Shown here: one piece after another, positions 5,600 to 24,772 of the stretch
Layout: the number at the start of each line of letters is the position of its first letter
Position numbering within the stretch: the first letter of the stretch is position 1
Source of the DNA: Candidatus Brocadiia bacterium
Lineage (GTDB): Bacteria; Planctomycetota; Brocadiia; CAIUPP01
Assembly: GCA_050015075.1 (NCBI GenBank)
Contig: JBEKCB010000010.1
Coordinates: forward strand, 65,096 to 129,095
Length of the DNA: 64,000 bases
Direction of reading: 5' to 3'
Notes under the pieces: generated by a model
Seen by the model: the letters and a program-made list of their open reading frames with translations, nothing else
Databases searched by the model: none
Told to the model about the DNA's origin: nothing
Made by a program: the position numbers and the translations under genes

Positions 5600-7767
5600 A
5601 CGAAGATGAAATCATGGAGTGCGATTTCCGCGACACGGTCACTCCGGGCCTAATCAGCCGCCGGGCCTTCCTGAAGGGGGTGGGCGGCGGGATCATCATC
5701 CTGATTTCCCTTGACATCCCCTCCGTCCTGGCGGCGGAAGCGGGCAGGAGGGAACAGGCGACCGATTTCAACGCGTACCTCAGGATTGGACCGGACGGCC
5801 GGGTCAGTTGCTTCTCGGGCAAGATTGAGATGGGGCAGGGAATCATCACCTCTCTGGCCCAGATGCTGGCCGATGAACTGGACGTGAGCGTGGAATCGGT
5901 GGACATGGTCATGGGAGACACGGCGCTCTGTCCATGGGATATGGGCACGTTCGGGTCCATGAGCACCCGTTTCTTCGGGCCGGCCCTCCGGGCGGCCGCG
6001 GCGGAAGCCAGGGTGGTCTTGATCGAACTGGCGGCCGAGCGTCTCGGCGTGCCGAAGGAGCGCTTGCAGACAAAGAACGGCGTGGTATTCGACAAGACGC
6101 AGGAGAGGACGCGGGTCACCTACGCGGAACTCGCCGGAGGCAAGCCGATCGCGCGGCACCTTACGGGGAAGGCCGTCCTGAAAGCCGCATCCGAGTTCAT
6201 GGTGATGGGCAAGCCCATGCTGCGAATGGACTCCCGGGTCAAGGTCACTGGAGAAGCCAAGTATGCGGCCGACATCCGCCTGCCCGGCATGCTGTACGCC
6301 AGGGTCCTCAGGCCCACCGCCCACGGCGCGAAGTTGACCAGCGTTGACACCGCTGCAGCCGAAGCCATGGAAGGCGTCCAGGTGGTCAAGGACGGCGACC
6401 TGATCGCCGTCCTTCACAAGGACTTCGATGCCGCAGGGAAGGCGCTGGGCGCGATCAAGGCCCAGTTCGACGTGCCCAAGGCCGAGGTGGACGATGTGAC
6501 CATCTTCGACCATCTTGTCAAAGGCGCGGGGGAGCCTAACGTTCTGGCCCAGGGGGGCGACATCGCGGAGGGGCAGAAGCTCGCCGAGGCCACGGTCGAG
6601 GCAACCTACCTGAACAGCTATGTCGCCCATGCCCCCATGGAGCCTCACAGCGCGGTGGCGCAGATCGAAGGGGACAAGGCGACAGTCTGGGCGTCCACTC
6701 AAACGCCCTTCCCGCTTCAGGGCCAGGTGGCCCAGGCCATCGGACTTTCGGCGGAGAACGTCCGCGTCATCACCCCGTTCCTGGGTGGAGGATTTGGAGG
6801 GAAGAGCCGCGGTCAGCAAGCCATTGAGGCGGCCAAGTTGGCGAAGCTGGTCGGGAAGCCCGTCCAAGTCGCCTGGACGCGCGCGGAGGAGTTCTTCTAC
6901 GACTCGTTCAGGCCGGCCGCCGTCGTCAAGATCAGGTCGGGGACGGCCGGGTCCGGGGCTATCGTGCTGTGGGACTACGGCGTCTATTTCGCCGGCGAGC
7001 GCGGCGCGCAACAGTTCTACAACATCCCGCACCATCGCACGGCGTCCTATTCGAAGTGGAGCGGTGAGGGCGGCGCCCATCCATTCGCCACCGGCCCCTG
7101 GCGCGCGCCGGCCAATAATACCAATACCTTCGCCAGGGAGTCGCAGATTGACGCCATGGCGGCCAAAGTGGGCATGGATCCCGTGGCGTTCCGATTGCAG
7201 AACCTGACCGACGAGAGGATGGTGAGAGTCCTCAAGGCGGCGGCCGAGGCGTTCGGCTGGACCCCGGCAAAAGCGCCCAGCGGCCGCGGCTTTGGCGTCG
7301 CTTGCGGCACCGACGCGGGCTCGTACGTGGCCTCCATGGCGGAGGTCCAGGTGGACAAGAAGACGGGGCACGTCCAGGTAAAGCGCGTGGTCTGCGTCCA
7401 AGACATGGGCTTGGTGATAAACCCCGAGGGCGCGAGATTGCAGATGGAAGGCGGTGTCACCATGGGCCTCGGTTATGCGCTGGCCGAGGAAATCCATTTC
7501 AAAGGGGGCCGGATCAAGGACCTGAATTTCGACACCTATGAACTGCCTCGTTTCCCCGGGGTGCCGCAGATCAAGACGGTGCTCGTGCCGGCGGACGACC
7601 TGCCTCCTCAGGGAGGCGGGGAACCGGCGATCATCTGCATGGGCGGCCTGGTCGCCAACGCCATCCACGATGCGACCGGCGTCAGGCTGTTCCAACTCCC
7701 TATGACGGAAGCGCGCCTCCTCAAGGCGCTGGCCGCGCGCACCGGCCAGCCTGCCTTTGTCGCCTGA
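5596..7767 (+). CDS. Xanthine dehydrogenase-family molybdopterin subunit, IorB-like, with Tat motif
   Basis: SRRAFLK Tat motif; EMGQG, HAPMEP, LGGGFGGK, QMEGG and GGGEP motifs; ATGA overlap with the small subunit. Confidence 0.92.
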   Translation: MNEDEIMECDFRDTVTPGLISRRAFLKGVGGGIIILISLDIPSVLAAEAGRREQATDFNAYLRIGPDGRVSCFSGKIEMGQGIITSLAQMLADELDVSVESVDMVMGDTALCPWDMGTFGSMSTRFFGPALRAAAAEARVVLIELAAERLGVPKERLQTKNGVVFDKTQERTRVTYAELAGGKPIARHLTGKAVLKAASEFMVMGKPMLRMDSRVKVTGEAKYAADIRLPGMLYARVLRPTAHGAKLTSVDTAAAEAMEGVQVVKDGDLIAVLHKDFDAAGKALGAIKAQFDVPKAEVDDVTIFDHLVKGAGEPNVLAQGGDIAEGQKLAEATVEATYLNSYVAHAPMEPHSAVAQIEGDKATVWASTQTPFPLQGQVAQAIGLSAENVRVITPFLGGGFGGKSRGQQAIEAAKLAKLVGKPVQVAWTRAEEFFYDSFRPAAVVKIRSGTAGSGAIVLWDYGVYFAGERGAQQFYNIPHHRTASYSKWSGEGGAHPFATGPWRAPANNTNTFARESQIDAMAAKVGMDPVAFRLQNLTDERMVRVLKAAAEAFGWTPAKAPSGRGFGVACGTDAGSYVASMAEVQVDKKTGHVQVKRVVCVQDMGLVINPEGARLQMEGGVTMGLGYALAEEIHFKGGRIKDLNFDTYELPRFPGVPQIKTVLVPADDLPPQGGGEPAIICMGGLVANAIHDATGVRLFQLPMTEARLLKALAARTGQPAFVA

Positions 7768-7789
7768 CCGGGGAATCCAAGCCCACGAC

Positions 7790-7876
7790 AGGCTGGCAGT
7801 ACTTCGCTGTTGTCCGCACATCGGAGTGACCGAGCACTTCGGCCGCCACCCGCTGGTTGTCATCGGCCTCAACGAT
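7790..7876 (-). pseudogene. Tyrosine recombinase C-terminal remnant
   Basis: Intergenic minus-strand translation IVEADDNQRVAAEVLGHSDVRTTAKYCQ matches the box II motif LGHxxxxTTxxY; no upstream HxxR motif. Confidence 0.6.
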
Positions 7877-7934
7877 AGGTCGTGCTTCCCCGGAACTCCT
7901 TCGACAGTCCCTCTGTCCCTGTTAGCTCGATGTC

Positions 7935-10025
7935 CTACTGGTTCAGGGGCGGCTTCCACAGCCGCAGGGCGAGAGCGTGGAACCACAGCGCGTAGTTATG
8001 GTCCGGCTGGTCGCGGCGGGCGGTCAGCTTGAGGCGGAAGGTGTGGGCGCCGGCTTTGAGTTCCACTTTGTCCAGCGTCGCCAGGCCCTCTGTAGCCCCC
8101 GTGATGCTTGTGACGGCCGGCGGCGCCTTCTCGACGGCATGCTCCGCACCCCCGTCGATCTGCCATACGAAGGGCGAGAGGGAGCGCGGCGGTTTCAGGC
8201 GCATAAGGCTATTGCCCGAGAACAGGACCTCGTAGCTTCCGTCCGCAGGAACGGTGAGAGTGACCTCGACCCAGTAGCCCTCCGGCCCCGGCTCGTCCTT
8301 GGTCCAGATGTCGGCGGTGCGTCCCTCGGAGAAGTTCTCATGAGGAGTCACCTGCCACCCCGGCCCCAGGCGGCCCGCCGCGGCTTGAGCGACCACCATG
8401 CCGGCGCTCGGCCCGCCCGCGGCGCCCCTGAGAATCTTGAGGCTGCGCGCGCCGTTCAGCAAGCAAGTGTCCTTGAGGTTGATCGTCGCCTGGCCGTCTT
8501 TGATCTGCACCTCAGTGGAGCGGCCGAGCAGGTCTGTCAGGGTCACGGGCCGACCTGCCTGCAGCGGCTGGACCGCGAGAGTAGCCGTTGCCTGGATGCA
8601 GAAGAGGTTCCCGCGGTTGTCGAAGTCTGCGATGGCCTCCTCGCCGCGCTGGAAAAAGTGCGTCTCGTAGCCGGGGATCGCGCTGCTGGAGCCGGTGTGT
8701 TTAGCCAGGCCGAGGCAGTGGGCGCCCACCGAGTAGGCGAGCCCCGCGGGACGGGCGGTGAGGTCGCGGTTGACCAGCGGACGGTAGTCTGCGTAACCGG
8801 CGAAGACGTGAAGGAACTTGAAGGACCGCTCAATGGGACTCGCCAGGTTGCGCAGCGGGATCTCCGAGCGCTCCTCGGAGTTCCACAGAGGCAGTTGGAG
8901 ATGGTGTTGCTTGAGCAGCGCCTGCCAGCCGTCAATAGCGCTCGGGATATCGTCGGTGTAATGGACCGTAAGGATATCGAGGTCTTTCCCGACGCCAAGC
9001 TGGAAGAGACGGTCGGCGAAGGTCTGACCGCTGTCGAAAAAGCCGGTCAACCCGGGCCCTGCGATGTGCGCCTCGGAATTGCCCCGTCGCAGAGCGGCGG
9101 CGGTGTGGTGGACCAACTCGGCGAAGTCATCCACCGTGCCGGTCCAGTACCGGTTCGTCAGGTTGGGCTCGTTCCAGATCTCCCAGACCTTGATGTCCTC
9201 GCGGAAGTCGGCCGACAGCTTGGTCATCAGTTGGTCCCAGAGCGCGTAGTCCGCGGGCTTTACCCGGTTGTAGACGGGACCGGCGTCCCCGATGACCGCC
9301 GTGTCGTTGGGGCGGGAGGACAGCTCGCGGGGACACTGGGCAACCTCGCCCATGACATAGAGGCCCTGCTTGCGCAGAGCCCGCACCATCGCCTTAGCCC
9401 TCGACCAGTCGGCATCCACCGAGGGCGGGGCGCCGGGCGTGATAGTGACCTTGCCGAAGGTCTCCGCCCAGAAGTTGAAACGGACCCACGAGGCGCCCAG
9501 CAGGCGCTGGCTCAGAGCCAGGTCCGCGGCCGCTTGCTCCAGGGGCCTGTCGTCGAGAGGGATGTAGAATATCCCCCAAGGCGAAGCCTCGTCAGGGGGA
9601 TCGGGCGTGAAAACGACGGCGACGGAGGTGGCGGCCGTGGCCTTCCTTTCGCCGCAGACCAGGTTCAGCCAGAGCGGGTACAGCCCGCGGCGTCCCCGTA
9701 TCTCAAGGGGCAAGCGCACTTCTCCGGCGCCGTCAGCGAACTCTGCGATGGGGACCTCGCCCTGCTGCACGAGGGTGCCCTCACTATCGGTCAGCCGGTA
9801 CTGTAAGCAGGCCGGTCCGGTCAAGCCGGTGGCCTTCGCCTGCATGTCGATCGGTTCGCTGTCCGAGAACATGAACCCGGCGCGGGGTGAGGCAGGGGTG
9901 ACGCTGAGCGCTTTTGGGTTCTGCGCCAGCGCGCTACCCGCGCACAGGCCTGCGGCGAACAGCAGGGCCAGGGTGATAAGTACCGATTGCCGCCGCGAGT
10001 TGGCAGCCTCCTGGATGATCTGCAC
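7935..10025 (-). CDS. Secreted GH-A clan glycoside hydrolase (GH39/GH5-like) with C-terminal CBM-like domain
   Basis: Signal peptide; WEIWNEPN acid/base motif, TVHY, LWNSEE nucleophile-like motif; GGAGG RBS before GTG at 10025. Confidence 0.75.
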   Translation of the reverse strand: MQIIQEAANSRRQSVLITLALLFAAGLCAGSALAQNPKALSVTPASPRAGFMFSDSEPIDMQAKATGLTGPACLQYRLTDSEGTLVQQGEVPIAEFADGAGEVRLPLEIRGRRGLYPLWLNLVCGERKATAATSVAVVFTPDPPDEASPWGIFYIPLDDRPLEQAAADLALSQRLLGASWVRFNFWAETFGKVTITPGAPPSVDADWSRAKAMVRALRKQGLYVMGEVAQCPRELSSRPNDTAVIGDAGPVYNRVKPADYALWDQLMTKLSADFREDIKVWEIWNEPNLTNRYWTGTVDDFAELVHHTAAALRRGNSEAHIAGPGLTGFFDSGQTFADRLFQLGVGKDLDILTVHYTDDIPSAIDGWQALLKQHHLQLPLWNSEERSEIPLRNLASPIERSFKFLHVFAGYADYRPLVNRDLTARPAGLAYSVGAHCLGLAKHTGSSSAIPGYETHFFQRGEEAIADFDNRGNLFCIQATATLAVQPLQAGRPVTLTDLLGRSTEVQIKDGQATINLKDTCLLNGARSLKILRGAAGGPSAGMVVAQAAAGRLGPGWQVTPHENFSEGRTADIWTKDEPGPEGYWVEVTLTVPADGSYEVLFSGNSLMRLKPPRSLSPFVWQIDGGAEHAVEKAPPAVTSITGATEGLATLDKVELKAGAHTFRLKLTARRDQPDHNYALWFHALALRLWKPPLNQ

Positions 10026-10129
10026 GAAGCCGACCTCCAAATCACCCGGAATTCCCCAGTTTGACCGTCAGAATCCGCTTGCCGAAGGGAAGTCGCGCGG
10101 CGAAAGAACGCCCCTGCGCCGGCGGGATT

Positions 10130-11740
10130 TTACCTGCCAGGCTGGGCAGGACCTTTAAGTTCTTTTGCAACGGCGTTCCTGTAGTAGCTATCGTCGTGCT
10201 GCTGCTTCCATCCGTCGGTCGGGGGCATGCCGGGAGCGGTGCGGTATTTCGCCCAGATTTCGACAACCCACTGCGTCCAGTAGCACGTGCCTTCCCGGCA
10301 ATAGTCGTTGTCGTAGTCGAGGCCGCGTGCTTTGAGGATTTTGCGGGAAGCGGCGTCGTTTTCGTACATCCAGCGATCCACGTAATCGAAGAATGCATCG
10401 TGGTTCCAGGCTTTTTCGGCGTGCAGGAGGTGGAGCGCCAAGGCCTGGGCGACCCAGGCCGAGCTCGTGTTGGCGCGGCGGTAGCCTTCGCTGGTCAGCT
10501 GGCCTCGTCCCCAGGTGGAGGGCGGCGTGTGTTCATAGGGACCCCAGGCGTTGGGCCCGCGAACATAGTTACGGCTGATCCCGGTGACTTCATCAATGCC
10601 GGAGTGCCCGGTGAAGACGACTTTCGCGCCGGTCCAGCAGTCACCGTAGGCGGTTTGCTCGTCTTCGCCGAAGGCGGCTTTGGGGAAGGACTTGTTGACG
10701 TTGGCGAGTTCGTCGTCACCGAGGAGCAGCCCTGCGAAGACGATGGGCAGCTTGCGGCCGCTGCCGTGGCCGCCGAAGCCCGGCCATCCGGAATGCCCGG
10801 CGCGAATGATGCCGCCGAGGTCAATTCCGACCTGGACGAAGTTATCGAGCAAAGGCTCTTTTTGCGCGGGAGTGAAGTTCATGCAGAGGAGCAGCGCCGC
10901 ATCGCCGACGCATTCGCCGACCTGCTGGCCGTACCAGGGCATGTTGTCGGCGGGTTCTTCGAAGCCGAAGAAGCCGGTGTTGACCCACGGGCGCTGGGTG
11001 TAGCGGACGTATTCCTCGATCGTGGCAGCATCGCCGGGACGGACGAGGGAGGGCAAGAGTTCGCGCTTCAGATCGCGCGCCAAAAAGATCTTTTGAGTGC
11101 GGTCGCAGAACGATGGACGGAATGCATCGGCCGGTTGCGGCGCAGCGACGCAGGTCAGCACGGCGGCGTCTTTGACGGGACTGGAATCCTCTACGCCGCG
11201 CGATTCCGTTTCGTTGCTATTCTGCAGTGGAACCTGCAGGACCAGTCCCATCGGCATGCTGATGGTCGAGACGAGGGAATCGCCGGGCTTCATGGCGACG
11301 GGAAGCTTTTGGATGAGGGCCGGGTCAAACCAGTTCTTGACGCCGCTGTCGTAAGATACTTTATCTTCGGCGGGCGGATTGAGCATGAAGCCGTTGCGAA
11401 CGCGGTATTTTCCCGGCTGGAGCTTATCCGTCGGGTCGAGCTGATCGGCGGGGATTTCGGCGCCGTAAAGAGGCCGCGGGCTGATCGCGGTGATCGTCAC
11501 GGGTCCGACGACGTAAAAGTCGCCGTTGACGAATTGTCCGACCCGAGCCGGCTTGTCAAACGTCCAGGTCATGCCGTATTGCGAGAGGCTGTCTTTCAAC
11601 GGAAGATCATCGAGCCTGGGCGCCGCCGGGGCGTTGGCCTTGGTGTAAATGGCGGCCGGCTTTTCCTGGCTCCAACCGGGACTCGCCAGAGCCGCGACTG
11701 TCGCGGCAGAGAGACCGAGCGCTAAAATCTTTCCGAACAT
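10130..11740 (-). CDS. Secreted hypothetical protein, probably carbohydrate-active
   Basis: Signal peptide MFGKILALGLSA...; GGAGG RBS; W/Y-rich; GGHGSGRK and FFDYVDRWM segments. Confidence 0.7.
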   Translation of the reverse strand: MFGKILALGLSAATVAALASPGWSQEKPAAIYTKANAPAAPRLDDLPLKDSLSQYGMTWTFDKPARVGQFVNGDFYVVGPVTITAISPRPLYGAEIPADQLDPTDKLQPGKYRVRNGFMLNPPAEDKVSYDSGVKNWFDPALIQKLPVAMKPGDSLVSTISMPMGLVLQVPLQNSNETESRGVEDSSPVKDAAVLTCVAAPQPADAFRPSFCDRTQKIFLARDLKRELLPSLVRPGDAATIEEYVRYTQRPWVNTGFFGFEEPADNMPWYGQQVGECVGDAALLLCMNFTPAQKEPLLDNFVQVGIDLGGIIRAGHSGWPGFGGHGSGRKLPIVFAGLLLGDDELANVNKSFPKAAFGEDEQTAYGDCWTGAKVVFTGHSGIDEVTGISRNYVRGPNAWGPYEHTPPSTWGRGQLTSEGYRRANTSSAWVAQALALHLLHAEKAWNHDAFFDYVDRWMYENDAASRKILKARGLDYDNDYCREGTCYWTQWVVEIWAKYRTAPGMPPTDGWKQQHDDSYYRNAVAKELKGPAQPGR

Positions 11741-11919
11741 GATATTCCTCCCTTTCCGTTTTGCCGTGAATCGAGACCGGAAGCGCACACCGGCTCGCGC
11801 GCTCCCACTCCGCGCTCGCGATCAACGCGGGTTATTTATCCCGCTGACCCAATGCCGTTTCAGCCGGAATTTTCCATCTGCCCCTCTTCCGGCGGACATT
11901 CGGCCTCTGGACATGAAAG

Positions 11920-13341: not shown

Positions 13342-13734
13342 TTATTTGTGGCTCCCTGCGAACCACAAGCATGAACAGATAAAGTCAACTGCAATCGAAG
13401 CGATGGCAATATAGTACCATTTGCGGTAAGTTGCGTGCTCCTGGATAAATCGCCCAAACGTCGCCCGACAGGTGAATGCTACCGCCCTAGCATACTGTAC
13501 CGGATTCACGCGCGCTTCAAATGGTAGCTGTTCAAAGTAGTTAACGTATGTTTTCAGGACAAGCCAGTAAATGGGCCACGTGAGGATGACTAAAAGAAGG
13601 GACGGAACAGCATTCCATAGAACTAAGCGCGCCTCTTTCATGCCAAGAAGCATACCTGTCCAATACGCCAGAATTAGAACCACTACGCCGAATGGAAATA
13701 TTTTGAACTGCCGTCCATAATCAGATTCGGGCAT
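13342..13734 (-). CDS. Low-GC hypothetical membrane protein (about 3 TM)
   Basis: 130-aa hydrophobic ORF; two sampled 60-nt lines are 45% GC, well below the flanks. Confidence 0.6.
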   Translation of the reverse strand: MPESDYGRQFKIFPFGVVVLILAYWTGMLLGMKEARLVLWNAVPSLLLVILTWPIYWLVLKTYVNYFEQLPFEARVNPVQYARAVAFTCRATFGRFIQEHATYRKWYYIAIASIAVDFICSCLWFAGSHK

Positions 13735-13773
13735 AGGCGCTCTCTTTAAACGGCATTCCCCAGATGGTCCGCC

Positions 13774-16389
13774 CTACTTCCTCGCGGCGCGCTTGGCGAC
13801 GATGCGGCGGACTTCGTCGTAGCCGGAGCGGTTCCGCAGGCCCAGGCTTTCTTCCACGCGCGCGATCGGCAGGGCGATCACCGGCGTGCCGGCGCGCACC
13901 AGCGCGCGCGCCATCTCGTTGGGGAAGCCCAACTCGCCTGACTTGGTATTGTACCGCCCCGCCGTTTCGTCCCACATCTCCACGTGCAGGCCGGGCAGCG
14001 TGCCCTTGAGAAGGCGCGCGCTGAGGAGAAAAGCGCCGACGTTCGTTTCACCAAGGCGTTTGGTCGGCGCCCCTTCGGCGGCGGTCTCGCGCGAGGCCAC
14101 CACGTAGCCGTGCAGGTCGCGCTGGATCGGAGCGTAGGGGGTGCGCGTGACGGCCGCCGGGAACAACATCGAAGATGACCCAAGCGCCTGGTAGACCACA
14201 ACGCTGCGCGCGAGGGTGTCGGCGCTCAGCAGAGGCTGTGAGCCCCAGACGACGAGCACGTCCGTCTCGCCATTGCGGATCTCAGGGATGGCGGTGAGCA
14301 CGGCATGGCCGGTGCCAAGCGGCTTCTGCTGGACGACGACGCGCGTTCCTCGCGGCAGCCGTATCTCCTTGAGGAGTTTGCCTTTCATGGCCGGGCTGAC
14401 GACGATGATGGGCGGCAAGGTCTTGAAGGGCATCGCCGCCAGGGAATCGAGCACGCGCGCGATGGAGGGCTTGCCGTCAATGACGTTGAGCGCCGCCGGA
14501 CTGCGATATCCTCCGCCCAGCCGGAGCTTTCCACGGCCGCCGGCGACGATGACGGGCTGAATCGGGTGCAGGAGTTTGAAGGCGGCCGCGCGAGGAATGC
14601 CCAGCAATTCGCAGGTGGACTTCTCGATCACCGGCGCGTACGTCTCCCATTTCCACCAGATGGCGCTGGCGTTGACCACCGCCCGCCGGAGCACGTCGCG
14701 CAGGCAGAGCAAGCCGAACCCTTCGCCGGGGGTGCTGACGGTGACGCTGCCCTCGGCAAGGCCGTTGCGGCTGCGAGGGGCGTAGTATCCGGACTGCACG
14801 CGGTCCACCAATTCCGCGACATGCTCCTTGGATACCAGGGCCAGGACATTTCCGCCGAACCCGCCGCCCATCAAGCGCGCGCCGTAGACGCCGGCATGGC
14901 CAAGGATGATGTCCGTCAGTTCGTCAATGTCGGGAGTCGTCAGCTCGTACAAATCACGCAGGCTCTCATGCGTCTCGGTTATGAGGTCACCCACGGCCCG
15001 CAGGCCGGGTTCGGTCTTCTCGGGCGCCTCGGGCATGCGGGAAGAGAAGATCTCCTGGAGAATCCGAACGGCCTCGCGGACCCGCACGACCTCGCCGGCA
15101 TGATGGAGCGCCCGCGGGCGGATGGCGATGGGCCGGCCGCCCATCTCGTTCGCCAAACGCGGATAGCCGCGCTCCAGTTCCGCATACACGGACGGGAAAT
15201 CCCGGCGGATCTCCGTCAACGTCACGCTCTCCGGCAGCACGCTCAGGATCTCGCGCGCCTCGTATCCGGCCGCGACCTCGTCTGTCTGGGTCGAGAGCGT
15301 TTTCACCACGCCGTTCCAGCGTTCGCCGAGAGCCGGATCCTGCCGACAAAGGCGTTCGAGGAGGGCGGGGATCAGCAGACGTGAGACGGCGGAGCGCTCG
15401 TTGAACTTGAGGAACACATCGCCGCTCTTGTCCGCCGGGTGCGAGAAGAAAGCAACCCACCGATACCGGAAGCGATGCAGCGGAACGAGGCTGGTCTTGA
15501 ACGGGGAGAAGTTCAGGTGCAGGGCGCTCTGCCGGCGCGAGAGGCACATGGTGTAGTGGTCCATGTTCCCGCCCCGCGTCCCGATGTACCACTCCGCCAG
15601 GGCCGAGTCCTCCGCGAGGGAACCGGCGTCGAACGGCAGACGATTGGCCACGCGCGTTGCCGCGCCGGTGAGGACCACCACGGCCGAGGAGGACGAGGCG
15701 CCGCCGGCTGCGGGAATGGTGGAATCGAGCAGGAAGTCGAAACCGCGCCGGAGTCTGCCGTACTTCATGGCGCAGAAGAAGACCGAGGCTTTGACGTAGT
15801 TGATCCAGTGGCGCCGAGGCGTGCCCACACGGTGCAGGTACGCCAGCCAATAGTCTTCGAGGGACGCGCCGGGCGCGCGTTTCTCCCGTGGGCCTTCGTC
15901 GGCGCGGAACTCCGCCGGCTCCGCCGCCGGCAGCGTGGAGCATCCGCGCACGCGCGGCTTGTCGGTGGGGCGGAAAAGGATCAGCATGTCATGCTCGCGG
16001 CTGGCAAACGGAAGCACCTCGGTGGGCAGGTAGCGCACGTAGTCCACGTGCTCGCCGAGAATATTGATGCGGGCCGGGGCGCGACCCAGCGTCACGGGAC
16101 CCGGCCCATAGCGGCTTGCGAATTGTTCGATCGCGCCGGCATACCGGTTGACTTGCCGATGGATCCGCGCCGCCCCGTTTCCGTAAAGGTGTCGAAACGT
16201 ATAGAGCAGCGCCAGCGCGAGCGGATTTCCCGTCGTATGATGGCGCGCCATATAGTCAATCAGCGCCTCCTCCGGCCCCTCCGGCACAATGGCCTCGCCC
16301 TCCCAATCGAGCAGATGCCGCGCCTGCTCAAGGACGCCCAGCAGGAGGCCGGAGTCCATGAGGAGATGCTCCATCTCGTATTCGTTCAC
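13774..16389 (-). CDS. Galactokinase-family GHMP kinase fused to a C-terminal GlmU-like nucleotidyltransferase domain
   Basis: Kinase motifs APARINILGEHVDY, IPAAGGASSSSA, GARLMGGGFGG. Transferase-fold motifs IVAGGRG, QQKPLGTGHAV, ETNVG. Start uncertain (16374-16407). Confidence 0.85.
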   Translation of the reverse strand: MNEYEMEHLLMDSGLLLGVLEQARHLLDWEGEAIVPEGPEEALIDYMARHHTTGNPLALALLYTFRHLYGNGAARIHRQVNRYAGAIEQFASRYGPGPVTLGRAPARINILGEHVDYVRYLPTEVLPFASREHDMLILFRPTDKPRVRGCSTLPAAEPAEFRADEGPREKRAPGASLEDYWLAYLHRVGTPRRHWINYVKASVFFCAMKYGRLRRGFDFLLDSTIPAAGGASSSSAVVVLTGAATRVANRLPFDAGSLAEDSALAEWYIGTRGGNMDHYTMCLSRRQSALHLNFSPFKTSLVPLHRFRYRWVAFFSHPADKSGDVFLKFNERSAVSRLLIPALLERLCRQDPALGERWNGVVKTLSTQTDEVAAGYEAREILSVLPESVTLTEIRRDFPSVYAELERGYPRLANEMGGRPIAIRPRALHHAGEVVRVREAVRILQEIFSSRMPEAPEKTEPGLRAVGDLITETHESLRDLYELTTPDIDELTDIILGHAGVYGARLMGGGFGGNVLALVSKEHVAELVDRVQSGYYAPRSRNGLAEGSVTVSTPGEGFGLLCLRDVLRRAVVNASAIWWKWETYAPVIEKSTCELLGIPRAAAFKLLHPIQPVIVAGGRGKLRLGGGYRSPAALNVIDGKPSIARVLDSLAAMPFKTLPPIIVVSPAMKGKLLKEIRLPRGTRVVVQQKPLGTGHAVLTAIPEIRNGETDVLVVWGSQPLLSADTLARSVVVYQALGSSSMLFPAAVTRTPYAPIQRDLHGYVVASRETAAEGAPTKRLGETNVGAFLLSARLLKGTLPGLHVEMWDETAGRYNTKSGELGFPNEMARALVRAGTPVIALPIARVEESLGLRNRSGYDEVRRIVAKRAARK

Positions 16390-16614
16390 CGGCAGCACAT
16401 TGGGCACGTTCTTGGCCTTGCAGAAACCAGGGTGTGAACTCTCCGCGGAAATCACTGCGGGGCGACAGGTTCCCGCTCGTGCGGCGCAGTATACCACCGC
16501 GCCCACGAAGATGCCACGCCGGGCAGTGCCGGAGCGAACAGTCCGGACGTCGGTTATGATTGGGACTTGAAGACGGTTACGGGTGTCCCCACGATAGCTC
16601 TGGAACAGCCCCGT

Positions 16615-18802: not shown

Positions 18803-19921
18803 ATGCCATTCTGGACTTCAACGACCCAGGATCGCGAGAGCCTGTTCTTCTACCAGCGAAAAGAAGGCGAGCAGGCCTGGGCGCCGTTGCTTTTCCCGCC
18901 GGACAAGATCCTTTCCGTGCGCAGCTCGAACGGGACGGCAACCTACGAAGAGGGCAAGGACTTCGTATTGGAGAAGGAAAGCGGCGTGCTGCGCCTGGTC
19001 CCCGGATCGAGGATTCCGTTCAAGACGCCCGGCGAGATACATCCGCCGGCGAACAGCGAGCTTCCCAAGTACAAGGCGAAGCGTGGTGATCCCGCCACTT
19101 ACCTGATGTTCGGCGAAGGCCACTTCTTCCACGACTTGCAGGTGGACGTGACCTACACGCACGCGGCCGGCCTCTGGAAGGGATACGTGCCGCGATACCA
19201 GGGTGAGAAACTGCCGATCGCGCTGGGCAAATTGAGGCGGAAGCAGCCGATCACCCTGTGTACACTCGGTGACAGCATCACCGAGGGCGGCAACGCCAGC
19301 AAGGTGGTTGGCGTCGAGCCGTTTCAGCCCGCTTACGGCGAGTTAGTGGCGCTCGGCCTCGAGAAAGCCTACGGGGCCAAGGTGACCTTCAGGAACTTCG
19401 GGGTCGGCGGCTGGACTTCCACGCAGGGGCTTGCCGACATTGATCGCGTGACCGCCGGCTCGAAGCCCGATCTGGCGATCATCGCCTTCGGCATGAACGA
19501 CGCGTGCGGCGGCGACATGGCGAAGTTCGTTGCCAACATCCGCGGCATGATGGATGCGATCAAGGCCGCCGCGTCGGAGGCGGAGTTCGTCCTGGTTGCG
19601 CCGATGCTACCGAATGCTGAGTGGGACGCCCCGAAAATGGAGAACTTTCCGGTGATTCGTGAGACGCTGGCCGGCCTTTGCGGGAAGGGCGCGGTCCTGG
19701 CGGACGTGACGTCGGTCTGGGCCGACCTGCTCAAGCGCAAGGCGTTCCTCGACCTGACCGGCAACGGCTTGAATCATCCGAACGATTTCGGACACCGCGT
19801 TTACGCGCAAACCATTCTGGCGCTCCTGGTCCCGCCCGGCGTGGCGGCCGGGATCGGAGAGCAGAAGGAGCAGGCGAGGCGGGGAAGTTCGGAGGACGGT
19901 CCAATGGGAAATCCCGGTTAA
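18803..19921 (+). CDS. SGNH/GDSL hydrolase (carbohydrate esterase-like)
   Basis: LGDSIT, GGWTS, FGMND and NHPND blocks. Confidence 0.85.
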   Translation: MPFWTSTTQDRESLFFYQRKEGEQAWAPLLFPPDKILSVRSSNGTATYEEGKDFVLEKESGVLRLVPGSRIPFKTPGEIHPPANSELPKYKAKRGDPATYLMFGEGHFFHDLQVDVTYTHAAGLWKGYVPRYQGEKLPIALGKLRRKQPITLCTLGDSITEGGNASKVVGVEPFQPAYGELVALGLEKAYGAKVTFRNFGVGGWTSTQGLADIDRVTAGSKPDLAIIAFGMNDACGGDMAKFVANIRGMMDAIKAAASEAEFVLVAPMLPNAEWDAPKMENFPVIRETLAGLCGKGAVLADVTSVWADLLKRKAFLDLTGNGLNHPNDFGHRVYAQTILALLVPPGVAAGIGEQKEQARRGSSEDGPMGNPG

Positions 19922-19991
19922 CGTGACGGGGCTGCCCGCGCCGGGCGTGTGGACTGACATCGGGGGCACTTCTGGAAAGGACGAGGGAAAT

Positions 19992-20942
19992 ATGATCAGA
20001 CCTGGAAAGACATGGCTGGACACGGATGGCAACGTCATCCAGGCGCACGGTGGCGGCGTCAACTTCTTCAATGGGCGTTACTACTGGTATGGCGAAAACA
20101 AGACCGGCTGCAGCGCGAAGCAGTCGGAAGGGAAACCGTGGCATGCCGGCGCCAATTGTTACTCTTCGTCCGATCTGTATAACTGGACCTTTGAGGGAAC
20201 CGTGTTGCCCGCGACGTCACCTGAATTCGGCCATGAGCTCAACCCGCGCAGGATCATGGATCGTCCCCATGTTCTTTTCAACAAAGCGAACGGCATCTAC
20301 GTGATGTGGATGAAACTCGTGCCCGCCAACTGGCAGGACCAGCATGTCGGAATTGCCACCTCGCCCTCGCCGACCGGGCCCTTCACTCTGAAAAAGATCC
20401 TTCACCCGAACGGCATGTGCGCCGGAGACGCAAATCTGTTCGCCGAGGCCAGCGACGGAAAGGCGTACTATGTCTTCGGCCGGCCCCACACCGAGGTCGT
20501 GGTAGCCGATCTGACTCCCGACTACCTGGATACAACGGGAATGTATAGCTGCCACTTCCCTCAACCGGGTGATCCGTGGGGCCGCGAGGCGCCGGCCATC
20601 TTCAAGCACAAGCATACCTATTACATGATTACATCGGGGACTACCGGATATCGTGCCAATGAAGCGCAGTGGGCCAGCGCACCTTTGATCCATGGTCCCT
20701 GGACCGTCCACGGCAATCCCTGCATCGGTGTGGGAAGCGGCACGACATTCGACTCCCAGATCACGGTGGTATTCGAAGTGGCCGATCGGCCCGGATGTTT
20801 CATCGCCATGGCGGACCGGTGGAATAGCGAAGACATCGAAGCCTCGACCTACGTCTGGCTGCCCTTGCAGTTCAGAGACGGCATTCTCGTCATCAACTGG
20901 TTTGATGAATGGGATTTGTCCTGGTTTGAGAAGAAGCACTAG
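19992..20942 (+). CDS. Glycoside hydrolase family 43 (GH43_24-like)
   Basis: PGKTWLDTDGNVIQAHGGG, YYWYGE, REAPAIFK, TFDSQ and MADRW motifs. Confidence 0.88.
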   Translation: MIRPGKTWLDTDGNVIQAHGGGVNFFNGRYYWYGENKTGCSAKQSEGKPWHAGANCYSSSDLYNWTFEGTVLPATSPEFGHELNPRRIMDRPHVLFNKANGIYVMWMKLVPANWQDQHVGIATSPSPTGPFTLKKILHPNGMCAGDANLFAEASDGKAYYVFGRPHTEVVVADLTPDYLDTTGMYSCHFPQPGDPWGREAPAIFKHKHTYYMITSGTTGYRANEAQWASAPLIHGPWTVHGNPCIGVGSGTTFDSQITVVFEVADRPGCFIAMADRWNSEDIEASTYVWLPLQFRDGILVINWFDEWDLSWFEKKH

Positions 20943-22112: not shown

Positions 22113-22518
22113 ATGGCCGACGGGCAACAGCCTGCCGATCAGAACCTGGTGCAGTGCGAGATCACGAAGCAATGGGTGCCGGCGGATCAAATCATCGAGA
22201 TCCAGGGGCACAGAGTCTGCAGCGCCGGGAAGGAGATTTTCCTCCGGCATCTCGAGAGCGGCCAGCCGCTCCCCGGCGAAATGGAACGCCCGATTGTTGT
22301 TACGCAATACATGGCCGGGATGCTGCAATTTCCACCGCGGCCCGAACATGCTGGCGCGCCTGGCCATTCTGGTCTTATCCAAGCCGAGCGTCAGCATCCT
22401 CAGCTATGTCGGCTTCGCCTACCTCCTCGCCAACATTATTGTGGCGCTGGCGGACCGCAATTCGCAGCGAGCGCTGCATGACCGTCTGGCCGGAACGCGG
22501 GTGATCACCCTTGGCTGA
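22113..22518 (+). pseudogene. RDD-family gene, internally deleted and frameshifted
   Basis: AAGGAG RBS and an N-terminal Cys-containing domain in one frame; the RDD C-terminal signature QRALHDRLAGTRV in another frame; central RDD helices missing. Confidence 0.65.
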
Positions 22519-22561
22519 CCGTGATTCCGAACGCAGAGCCTGAGCAACGCGGGAGAACGAT

Positions 22562-23941
22562 ATGAAGATCTTCGTCACGGCCGTTATTACCTGCGCGGTG
22601 ACGCTGCTGGTCGCGGTGCCGGTGTGCATCGGCTTGTCGCGCCGGCACAAGGAAGACCGCGGCTCCGCCGTGCGCGTGGAGAAGCCCATCCGCGGCGATC
22701 TCGTGGAACTCGTCAGCGCGTCCGGCACGATCATGCCCAAGACCAAGGTCTCGATTTCCGCCCGTGTCTCCGCGCTGATTCAGGAGATTCCGTACGACGA
22801 AGGGCAGGTAGTCACGCGCGGCGATCCGGCTGCGAATCCGCCGATTCCGCCGTCGGTGCTGGTGCGGCTGGACGACAAGGACCTGCAGGCGGCACTGAGG
22901 ACGGCCGAGTCCACGCGGGAATCGAAAGCGGCCCAGATCGCGGTCGCCCGGGCGCGGCTGGTGGCGTCGCGCAGCACGATTGACGGGATGCGCGTCTCCC
23001 TCGACGACGCCCGGCGCACCTTGGAGCGGCAGGCGGAGTTGCTCAAGAACAATTACGTCAGCCAGCAGGCGCGCGACTCGGCCCAATGCCAGGTGGACAA
23101 GCTCGCGGCCGACATCGCCTCGGCGGAAGCTTCGCTCAAGGCGGACGAACTGAACCTGGTGACGATGCAGCACGACCTGGCCGCCGCCGACGCCGACGTC
23201 GCGCGCTGCAAGGAAAACCTCAATTACACCGTCATCACCTCGCCGATTGACGGTGTGGTCACGGCCGTCAAGACCCATGTCGGCGAAATGGCGCTGGGCA
23301 CGATGAACTACGCCGGCACCGAAATCCTTCAGGTCGCCGACCTGTCGAAAATGACGCTCCTGGCCGAAGTGGACGAAGCGTACATCGGCAAGATCCATCC
23401 GGGCCAGAAGGTCAAGGTCTCCGTCCAGGCGTACAGCGACCGCACCTTCGACGGCACGGTGGAATCCATCGCGCTGGTGAATTCCGTCTCCACACGGACC
23501 AACTCGAAATACTTCGAGACGCGCATCCTCGTGAAGGGCGACGGCCGCCAGCTCCTCTCCGGCTTGACGGCCGAGGCCGACATCGAGACCATGCGCCACG
23601 ACGACATCATGAAAATTCCCACTCAGGCCGTGCTCGGACGGCGCACCGATGAGCTGCCCGCCAAAATCAGCGATAAGAACTCCAACGTCCAGTCCGACAA
23701 GACGGAGACGCCCGTGGTGTACCGCCTGGTGGACGGCAAGGCCGTGGTCACGCCGGTGAAGCTCGGCGTCACCGACGCCACTCACACCCAGATCGTGTCC
23801 GGCCTGGCTGATGGCGACCAGGTCATTGTGGGTCCATATAAGGTCCTGGAGACCCTCGCACACGACCAGACCGTCTACGATGATCGGACCGAGCTTCCGG
23901 CCAAGGGCGCAACCGCCTCGAAGCCGGCAAAGCCATCCTGA
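22562..23941 (+). CDS. Efflux periplasmic adaptor (MacA/HlyD family)
   Basis: N-terminal TM, ASGTI, coiled hairpin, ITSPIDGVV and EVDEAYIG motifs. Confidence 0.9.
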   Translation: MKIFVTAVITCAVTLLVAVPVCIGLSRRHKEDRGSAVRVEKPIRGDLVELVSASGTIMPKTKVSISARVSALIQEIPYDEGQVVTRGDPAANPPIPPSVLVRLDDKDLQAALRTAESTRESKAAQIAVARARLVASRSTIDGMRVSLDDARRTLERQAELLKNNYVSQQARDSAQCQVDKLAADIASAEASLKADELNLVTMQHDLAAADADVARCKENLNYTVITSPIDGVVTAVKTHVGEMALGTMNYAGTEILQVADLSKMTLLAEVDEAYIGKIHPGQKVKVSVQAYSDRTFDGTVESIALVNSVSTRTNSKYFETRILVKGDGRQLLSGLTAEADIETMRHDDIMKIPTQAVLGRRTDELPAKISDKNSNVQSDKTETPVVYRLVDGKAVVTPVKLGVTDATHTQIVSGLADGDQVIVGPYKVLETLAHDQTVYDDRTELPAKGATASKPAKPS

Positions 23942-23945
23942 ACAC

Positions 23946-24015
23946 ATTAGCCGCGCCAACGGCTGCGCGGCTGGTGCATCAGTAGAAAATGCGCGCTGAG
24001 CGCGCATTTTCTTAG
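23946..24015 (+). repeat. 70-bp double-hairpin dispersed repeat, copy 1
   Basis: 65/70 identical to the reverse complement of 54986-55055. Confidence 0.85.
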
Positions 24016-24046
24016 GAGCCTTGATTCCCGCAAACAGGCGCCGCCC

Positions 24047-24772
24047 ATGATTCGGCTGGAAAACGTCCGCAAGCTTTTCAAGATCGGCCGGGAGCAGATT
24101 CACGCGCTCGACGGCGTGGACCTGCGCGTCGAGGCCAACGAATACGTCGCCGTGATGGGCGCCTCCGGCTCGGGCAAGAGCACGCTGATGAATGTCCTCG
24201 GCTGCCTCGACCGGCCGACCTCCGGCGTGTACGAGCTCAACGGGAAACCCACCATGCAAATGAGCCAGGGTGAGCTGGCGCACACCCGGAACCGGCAGAT
24301 CGGGTTCGTTTTTCAGTCCTTCGAACTGCTCCCGCGGCTGAACGCCCTCAAGAATGTCTGCCTGCCGATGATCTACGCGCCCGGCGGCTGGTGGGGCTCG
24401 CAGAAGCGGGCGCGGGCGGCGCTCGAGCGCGTGGGACTCGGCGACCGCGTGCGCCATAGGCCGAACCAGCTCTCCGGCGGCGAGCGCCAGCGGATCGCCG
24501 TCGCCCGCGCGCTGGTGAACAGTCCGAGCATCCTCCTGGCCGATGAGCCCACCGGCAACCTCGACAGCCGCAACAGCGAGGAGATCCTGTCGCTCTTCGA
24601 TCAACTCCATCGCGACGGCCAGACCATCATCCTGGTCACCCACGAGGTGGATGTCGCCCGCCATGCCCGGCGGATCATCCGCATGCGCGACGGCCGCATC
24701 CTCTCCGACCTGCCGCGCGAAAGCGACCCCGTCATCGCGCGCGCCGTCAATCCGGCCGGGAGCGCGCCATGA
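24047..24772 (+). CDS. ABC transporter ATP-binding protein (MacB/LolD type)
   Basis: [24 protein letters not shown] and VTHE motifs. Confidence 0.95.

Follow-up and report, generated by a model that had tools for sequence, protein, structure and literature searches.

A kinase-first fusion of a GalK-like sugar kinase to a GlmU-fold domain, with a covarying active-site variant and clade-specific changes in the G-loop

Background

What does a nucleotidyltransferase-like domain do when it is fused to a sugar kinase and its active-site residues have been exchanged? The question is raised by a gene on the minus strand of a 64,000-nucleotide stretch of DNA from Candidatus Brocadiia bacterium (Planctomycetota), namely positions 65,096 to 129,095 of contig JBEKCB010000010.1 of assembly GCA_050015075.1. 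This whole stretch is referred to below as the window. The gene encodes one polypeptide that joins a GalK/GALK2-like kinase to a GlmU-like nucleotide-sugar domain, here called the C-domain. A previous reading made from the letters alone (the sequence-only reading) had described an open reading frame (ORF) of about 870 aa, and had proposed either a one-polypeptide salvage enzyme or a kinase carrying a pseudoenzyme domain that senses UDP-sugars.

Here we place the gene in a family that is widespread and uncharacterised. The fusion architecture itself is not new, because databases already give members automatic names; what is new is a covarying active-site variant together with a clade-specific loss of residues from the G-loop. 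In the full-text literature searched, which excludes subscription journals, no published description of this kinase-first family was found.

Results

A recurrent fusion gene

The maximal open frame occupies window positions 13774-16506 on the minus strand, as do all features of the gene given below, and codes for 910 aa from a GTG to a TAG stop at 13774-13776. Translation probably begins at an in-frame GTG between 16407 and 16389, or else at the ATG at 16374. With the start at 16389 (a GTG) the protein has 871 aa (P0001, whose residue numbers are used throughout), which agrees with the length given by the sequence-only reading, and all motifs quoted there were found at verified coordinates. 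The identical database cluster representative, P0002, has 877 aa. P0001 begins with an N-terminal extension (residues 1-87, 16129..16389) that is conserved across the family and has a ratio of nonsynonymous to synonymous substitution rates (dN/dS) of 0.046 against the 94%-identical locus L004. The GalK/GALK2-like GHMP kinase domain assigned by Pfam (residues 88-560, 14710..16128) is followed by an inter-domain linker (residues 561-609, 14563..14709), the last part of which is a helix belonging to the C-domain model, and by the C-domain itself (residues 610-871, 13777..14562), recognised by Pfam, hhalign, AlphaFold2 (AF2) and Foldseek. Pfam matches above cut-offs are GalKase_gal_bdg (88-129), GHMP_kinases_N (197-283), GHMP_kinases_C (463-536) and NTP_transf_3 (613-734).

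The fusion is not rare. A word-indexed search of 5.8 billion proteins, in which 8000 candidates were scored, returned 430 proteins at E <= 1e-3; the 120 best of them have 551-890 aa, nearly all 790-890 aa, and the same Pfam architecture. Automatic annotation calls some members, for example, 'galactokinase/CTP:molybdopterin cytidylyltransferase MocA'. In genomes, 211 relatives turned up, of which 80 loci were kept. Their sources are Planctomycetota metagenome-assembled genomes (MAGs), with 94, 70, 68 and 64% identity and in one case the label Kiritimatiellae, and Acidobacteriota MAGs, mostly Blastocatellia/Pyrinomonadaceae, at 39-44% identity. Further clusters combining a GHMP kinase with an NTP-transferase are present in the ESM Atlas in Hydrogenedentota, Verrucomicrobiota and Chloroflexota.

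An origin by chimeric assembly, or by read-through from one gene into another, is hardly credible. The genome is a draft (4.64 Mb in 66 contigs, 93.6% complete) and nothing was found that supports such an origin, while the junction recurs in 28 other proteins of the same clade (clade A, below) and at four independent Planctomycetota MAG loci (L004-L007), the frame is without stops, the identical cluster is found on 3 contigs and the linker is under selection (dN/dS 0.22). Because the same architecture recurs across many independent records, a chimera is excluded for practical purposes.

A split form of the fusion was also considered and rejected: the kinase-only loci of Blastocatellia are stand-alone kinases of 473-516 aa with no adjoining transferase gene. 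In P0003, a relative 94% identical to P0001, the last ~100 residues do not align with the family and resemble the minus-strand ORF 13721-13975, an alternative reading frame in the window; this indicates a frameshift that is either genuine or an error of sequencing. Locus L004, likewise 94% identical, is intact.

Fold and residue mapping of the C-domain

The AF2 model of the C-domain, built from 59 family sequences, has a per-residue confidence (pLDDT) of 90 and a pTM of 0.90, and shows the fold of the N-terminal domain of GlmU. Searched with Foldseek against the PDB, the model gave about 33 top matches that are all GlmU uridyltransferase domains, the best being 1g97 (E 1.7e-17, TMq 0.75, 23% identity). 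Kinship with IspD was dropped as a candidate and gave way to the comparison with UAP1 (below). The fold search returned GlmU and not IspD, and an IspD-type catalytic Lys (a family G-I-K likened to IspD K213) was abandoned after hhalign against E. coli IspD covered the N-terminal half only, at a probability of 21.

Residues were mapped by hhalign of the family profile against the E. coli GlmU sequence (probability 98.1, 233 columns), which places R18 at L622, K25 at A632, Q76 at Q687, G81 at G692, Y103 at W715, D105 at S717 and N227 at R852. The uridine- and sugar-binding positions are kept, as the sequence-only reading had said. Q687 and G692 lie in the family-invariant segment QQKPLGTGHAV (residues 687-697, 14299..14331), and the sugar-binding E154 and N169 of GlmU correspond to E768 and to N783 within ETNVG (residues 781-785, minus strand).

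The remaining positions have changed. The pyrophosphorylase fingerprint, L-x2-G-x-G-T-x-M-x4-P-K (PMC10087520), with its R18 and K25, is missing from the G-loop VAGGRGKLRLGGGYRSPAAL (residues 615-634, 14488..14547), which has L622 and A632 at these positions and a 3-residue insertion, and which ends in SPAAL (residues 630-634, minus strand). WGSQP (residues 715-719, 14233..14247) stands for the YGDVP of GlmU and puts S717 at the D105 position, and LGLRN (residues 849-853, 13831..13845) stands for EGVNN and puts R852 at the N227 position. The substitutions that the sequence-only reading had listed in SPAAL, WGSQP and LGLRN are literally correct, and the alignment to GlmU adds the loss of R18. 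The left-handed beta-helix (LbH) acetyltransferase part of GlmU is absent; the protein ends about 20 residues past the N227 equivalent, inside a long C-terminal helix, and all NCBIfam GlmU equivalog models score far under their cut-offs.

Active-site variation across the family

The changes at D105 and N227 are not particular to this protein. GlmU-equivalent columns were tabulated in an alignment of 119 family members (alignment A1), in which the D105 column holds Ser or Thr in 113 sequences, Ala, Val or Ile in the other 6 and Asp in none, and the N227 column holds Lys or Arg in 119/119. W715, Q718 and P719, the W, Q and P of WGSQP, are invariant or nearly so. Searching 1.84 billion cluster representatives with a C-domain profile gave 9561 matches at E <= 1e-3, 60 of them at E <= 1e-30. 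Among the best 150 of the 9561, a tight subfamily has Thr or Ser (rarely Ala or Val) at the D105 column paired with Lys or Arg at the N227 column, and generic stand-alone transferases, found below about E 1e-34, have Asp paired with Asn or Asp. Mixed cases in the same set of 150 are P0133, with Asp and Lys at the two columns, and P0134, with Lys and Asn; in P0134 (622 aa) the basic residue looks as if it had been shifted to the other ligand position.

A basic residue at this place has a published counterpart. The second-metal site of UAP1 is occupied by a Lys, and Lys437 of AfUAP1 is required for catalysis (PMC8386105, Raimi et al.). Lys407 of human AGX1 has been equated with Asn239 of M. tuberculosis GlmU (PMC9105790), which is the N227 position of E. 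coli GlmU and aligns with R852 here and with Lys in the acidobacterial clade, in a column near the end of the alignment. Because they are family-wide, covary and match the published UAP1 arrangement, the changes of D105 to Ser and N227 to Arg most plausibly reflect an active site that would work with one metal and a basic residue, and not decay.

The subfamily domain keeps characteristic company. Pfam annotation of 31 representatives found it joined to GalK-like GHMP kinases, with either domain first and at several lengths. P0139 (923 aa) combines a transferase domain of the T/S plus K type with a Polysacc_synt_2 dehydratase and a GNAT domain, partners that fit a UDP-N-acetylhexosamine as the product.

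Loss of G-loop residues in Planctomycetota

Three clades can be distinguished in the alignment, and they differ at the G-loop. Clade C (83 Acidobacteriota sequences, about 40-44% identical to P0001) has Arg at the R18 column and Lys at the K25 column in 83/83, within a canonical loop, A-A-G-K-G-T-R-A-x-x-S-G-L-x-V-P-K-P-L; its D105 column is Thr in 81/83 and its N227 column Lys in 83/83. Clade A, to which the gene of the window belongs (29 Planctomycetota sequences, at least 59% identical to P0001), has Arg at the R18 column in 1/29 and Lys at the K25 column in 2/29, with Ser at D105 in 28/29 and Arg at N227 in 29/29. Clade B (7 sequences at about 47% identity) has no Arg at the R18 column (0/7), an Arg one column earlier in 5/7, Lys at the K25 column in 6/7, Thr (4) or Val (3) at D105 and Arg at N227 in 7/7. 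The ligand-binding positions of clade A have not followed the G-loop: the equivalents of Q76, G81 and Y103 are kept in 29/29 and those of E154 and N169 in 28/29.

The C-domain of clade A is nonetheless conserved to the same degree as its kinase. Mean pairwise identity of the C-domain and of the kinase is 0.643 and 0.675 in clade A (378 pairs, with P0003 omitted for its frameshifted C-terminus), and 0.612 and 0.593 in clade C. Against L004, both the kinase and the C-domain have a dN/dS of 0.111, at synonymous divergences (dS) of 0.25-0.29; pairs more distant than L004 are near saturation for this measure. Because it is conserved like the kinase in clade A, with an equally low dN/dS, the C-domain is functional.

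Clade A varies at twelve positions where clade C is conserved, the R18 and K25 columns among them, and has fixed 17 C-domain positions at which clade C varies; fixed differences between the two clades number three, S/T at 717, L/I at 851 and R/K at 852. This pattern is that of a functional shift that has freed the triphosphate-gripping residues and retained the ligand pocket. The net charge of the loop ranges from -3 to +5 in clade A, with 9/29 at 0 or below, as opposed to +1 to +5 in clade C, and the neutral or acidic clade A loops are hard to square with the binding of a triphosphate. In the AF2 model the G-loop is the sole low-confidence part (pLDDT of its blocks 66 and 64; 72 and 85 in a clade C control).

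The kinase half

The kinase half is intact by every motif of the galactokinase branch of the GHMP superfamily, as the sequence-only reading had judged. It carries the GalK signature RINILGEHVDY (residues 107-117, 16039-16071), motif II PAAGGASSSSA (226-236, 15682-15714), the catalytic-Asp motif TRGGNMDH (271-278, 15556-15579) and motif III MGGGFGGN (507-514, 14848-14871), and R107, E113, H114, D116, S233, D277, G509 and G512 are invariant in all 119 sequences of alignment A1. Its top PDB match is human N-acetylgalactosamine (GalNAc) kinase, GALK2 (2a2c, E 5.4e-31, over residues 84-561), and human galactokinase ranks next (E about 1e-24). For another PDB match, 9ulx 'AbGHMP', no paper describing the structure was found in the full-text literature.

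The curated cut-offs for galactokinase proper are missed: the NCBIfam model gal_kin TIGR00131 gives 145.9 bits where 226.65 are needed, and other GalK equivalog and PRK models fall further below theirs. The genome has a separate, canonical GalK of 404 aa on another contig (C22; 408 bits against a cut-off of 385). Since every GalK equivalog cut-off is missed and a separate GalK is present, the kinase half is predicted to be an intact GalK-family anomeric kinase and not simply the galactokinase of the organism. Its predicted reaction is the phosphorylation of a hexose or hexosamine-type sugar at C1.

Genomic context

No GlmU above the NCBIfam cut-off was found in the 93.6%-complete genome, which carries LpxD. 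It also has a 356-aa transferase of long-form RmlA/archaeal-GlmU-like type (L095:1097-2164) that may make UDP-GlcNAc. Because of this other candidate, housekeeping synthesis of UDP-GlcNAc need not depend on the C-domain studied here.

The surroundings of the fusion were compared between clades. For clade C, 76 neighbour ORFs from 16 loci were drawn from a set of 142 ORFs from 24 loci. The conserved locus consists of the fusion, then a major facilitator superfamily (MFS) transporter and two phosphoglucomutase/phosphomannomutase (PGM/PMM) genes, with an Amidohydro_2 gene and a gene of about 530 aa without assigned function upstream on the opposite strand (examples are L008, L012, L015, L016, L020, L034 and L039); in variants of the locus there are genes of the NagB-like, GNAT, ROK, DeoR or AgaS families. 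In L012 each of the two mutases scores above the archaeal GlmM cut-off of 439 bits, at 454.7 and 490.9. The transporter is of the anion:cation (D-galactonate/ACS) type, with a score under its cut-off. The clade C context points to an amino sugar, though only tentatively in view of the transporter type. Around the clade A genes (the window and L004-L007) no conserved or informative partners were found, in GC-rich loci where ORF picking may have taken wrong strands, and 14/20 of the neighbours have no Pfam match at E <= 1e-5.

Several other loci were observed in passing. On contig C4 of the genome (about 13.9-17.9 kb; L001/L087/L088), the gene for a GalK-like GHMP kinase of 581-638 aa is immediately followed by that for a protein of 855-873 aa in the Fkp-like order, with an N-terminal GlmU-like transferase that has a canonical G-loop and a 'GD', and a C-terminal GalK-like kinase. 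At L055:4609-8915 a stand-alone kinase of the family has a NagP/GluP-type MFS transporter on one side and, on the other, a Gfo/Idh/MocA oxidoreductase with a twin-arginine translocation (TAT) signal that may be GH109-like. In the window, three long minus-strand ORFs without a Pfam match at E <= 1e-3, at 5650-7983 (777 aa), 10130-11785 (551 aa) and 22505-24661 (718 aa), stand among a GH39-like gene (7935-10037), a GH43 gene (19923-20939) and a GDSL esterase gene (18803-19918).

Discussion

The observations suggest two kinds of change. Throughout the family, the second-metal ligands D105 and N227 of GlmU have been exchanged for Ser or Thr together with Lys or Arg, and the family as a whole probably turns sugar-1-phosphate and UTP into UDP-sugar, because the arrangement matches that of UAP1 with a Lys replacing the second Mg2+. 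In the Planctomycetota clade, the G-loop Arg and the Lys of the P-K motif, which grip the triphosphate or pyrophosphate, have been lost, and the C-domain may have been retained as a UDP-sugar binder, a sensor of the end product that would modulate the kinase it is fused to. For clade A we favour, with confidence and doubt in about equal measure, a C-domain that binds UDP-sugar and whose catalysis is absent or strongly attenuated, on an anomeric sugar kinase, because the G-loop Arg and the P-K Lys are gone while the uracil- and sugar-binding residues and the fold stay under purifying selection. The pseudoenzyme idea of the sequence-only reading is thereby plausible for the Planctomycetota clade, on other residues than those it had stressed: the loss of K25, and of R18 which it did not list, is clade-specific and speaks for it, whereas the changes at D105 and N227 are family-wide and are no sign of decay. 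A bolder proposal can be made only tentatively, and we rate it as unlikely to hold in full: that the subfamily is a bacterial GlmU-fold lineage which independently reached the eukaryotic UAP1 solution, with a single metal plus a basic side chain where there had been two metals, nearly always fused to GalK-like kinases, and that the Planctomycetota clade records a transition from enzyme to pseudoenzyme inside one polypeptide, the transferase half having turned into an allosteric UDP-sugar sensor of a salvage kinase.

The chief competitor, which we think somewhat less probable than a silenced C-domain but take seriously, is a fully active one-polypeptide salvage enzyme, in which the kinase would make the sugar-1-phosphate and the C-domain the UDP-sugar, with R852 substituting for the second metal and a rewired G-loop using R619 and/or R629 (and K621 or R623) in the place of R18 and K25. 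Several results fit it. The C-domain is fused to the maker of its presumed substrate, all of its uridine- and sugar-binding residues are kept, and catalysis could proceed with the T/S plus K/R pair found throughout the family. Some points also weigh against our preferred reading. The P0001 loop is basic (R619, K621, R623 and R629; net charge +4) and well conserved among the closest relatives, and clade A has semi-conserved Arg residues at 619 (25/29) and 629 (23/29), possible substitutes for R18 and K25; at 629 most clade C sequences have an acidic or neutral residue. Equal dN/dS in the two domains is also what an active enzyme would be expected to have, and the lower pLDDT of the G-loop is weak evidence, since the G-loops of the superfamily are flexible and the clade C control loop is also weaker. 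In addition, the N227 column sits close to the end of the hhalign alignment, we take D105 and N227 to be the protein ligands of the second metal in GlmU although the passages cited name the site and not these ligands, and the regulatory role of the C-domain is something we purely infer.

What speaks against an active clade A enzyme is that the residues lost are Arg and Lys in every clade C sequence and are kept in nearly all of the best 150 of the 9561 representatives. The candidate replacement Arg residues are not invariant, and of the clade A loops 9/29 have no net positive charge and some are shortened. The same loss of Arg cuts the activity of GalU and GalF by orders of magnitude: in GalU, T20M/R21H lowers Vmax by about three orders of magnitude, and GalF, in which the T-R of GXG(T/S)R is replaced, has very low activity that rises about tenfold when the residues are restored (PMC4643126). 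It is improbable, and clearly more so than catalysis, that the C-domain serves an end unrelated to UDP-sugar sensing, such as oligomerisation or scaffolding, the binding of a different nucleotide-linked ligand, or a different nucleotide-sugar chemistry. The 17 positions that clade A has newly fixed, and at which clade C varies, fit a change of function, and clade A is without the amino-sugar operon context of clade C; the uracil and sugar contacts (the equivalents of Q76, G81, E154 and N169), kept in 28-29 of the 29 sequences, argue for the same class of ligand. No usable papers on mutagenesis of GlmU Arg18 or Lys25 were found in the full-text literature searched.

The gene alone is a modest finding, and the interest lies in the family. 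The covariation of D105 and N227 offers a natural test of the lysine-for-metal idea in a bacterial fold, and thanks to the planctomycete clade, versions that look active can be paired with versions that look inactive, to study how a fused domain turns regulatory. The acidobacterial members are candidate new UDP-sugar biocatalysts, because they look catalytically complete and lie in amino-sugar loci.

Compared with known systems, the C-domain has the same fold as the uridyltransferase domains of GlmU from E. coli, M. tuberculosis and S. pneumoniae (TMq 0.70-0.75, 20-25% identity), and shares with GlmU the uridine-binding Q76 and G81 and the sugar-binding E154 and N169. GlmU has an LbH domain, R18 and K25, and D105 and N227; the present protein is without the LbH domain and carries Leu, Ala, Ser and Arg at these four positions. 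Eukaryotic UAP1/AGX1 has a basic residue where bacterial GlmU puts the second metal, and R852, aligned with N227, may be its counterpart, but UAP1 belongs to a different sequence family (UDPGP type) and retains the G-loop Arg and Lys (R141 and K148 in AfUAP1; PMC8386105), both of which the present protein lacks.

With GalF the likeness runs the other way, in that the G-loop Arg is lost and the fold and ligand-binding residues are retained, as in this C-domain, where fold and ligand site are under selection. Ballicora et al. are said to have described in 2005 that the large subunit of ADP-glucose pyrophosphorylase lost the same Arg and Lys. GalF and that large subunit are separate subunits or paralogues, whereas this domain is fused to a kinase. 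For the kinase half, the closest solved relative is human GALK2, which has all of the GHMP motifs in common with it but stands alone.

Single polypeptides that combine a GHMP anomeric kinase with a domain of nucleotidyltransferase fold are known from Fkp and GKUP. In Fkp, the L-fucokinase/GDP-fucose pyrophosphorylase of Bacteroides fragilis, the pyrophosphorylase is N-terminal and the kinase C-terminal (PMC11982464), so that the opposite domain order noted by the sequence-only reading is borne out. Zebrafish GKUP, a glucuronokinase/putative UDP-glucuronic acid pyrophosphorylase, likewise has the pyrophosphorylase first and the kinase last, and its pyrophosphorylase activity could not be shown in vitro (PMC3938481). 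In the present protein the kinase comes first and is GalK/GALK2-like, and the transferase is GlmU-like. Chimeras of galactokinase and uridyltransferase are now being engineered for the making of nucleotide sugars (PMC11267548). Fkp-type single-polypeptide kinase-pyrophosphorylases are workhorses of nucleotide-sugar synthesis, and to these a natural and abundant kinase-first family is an addition.

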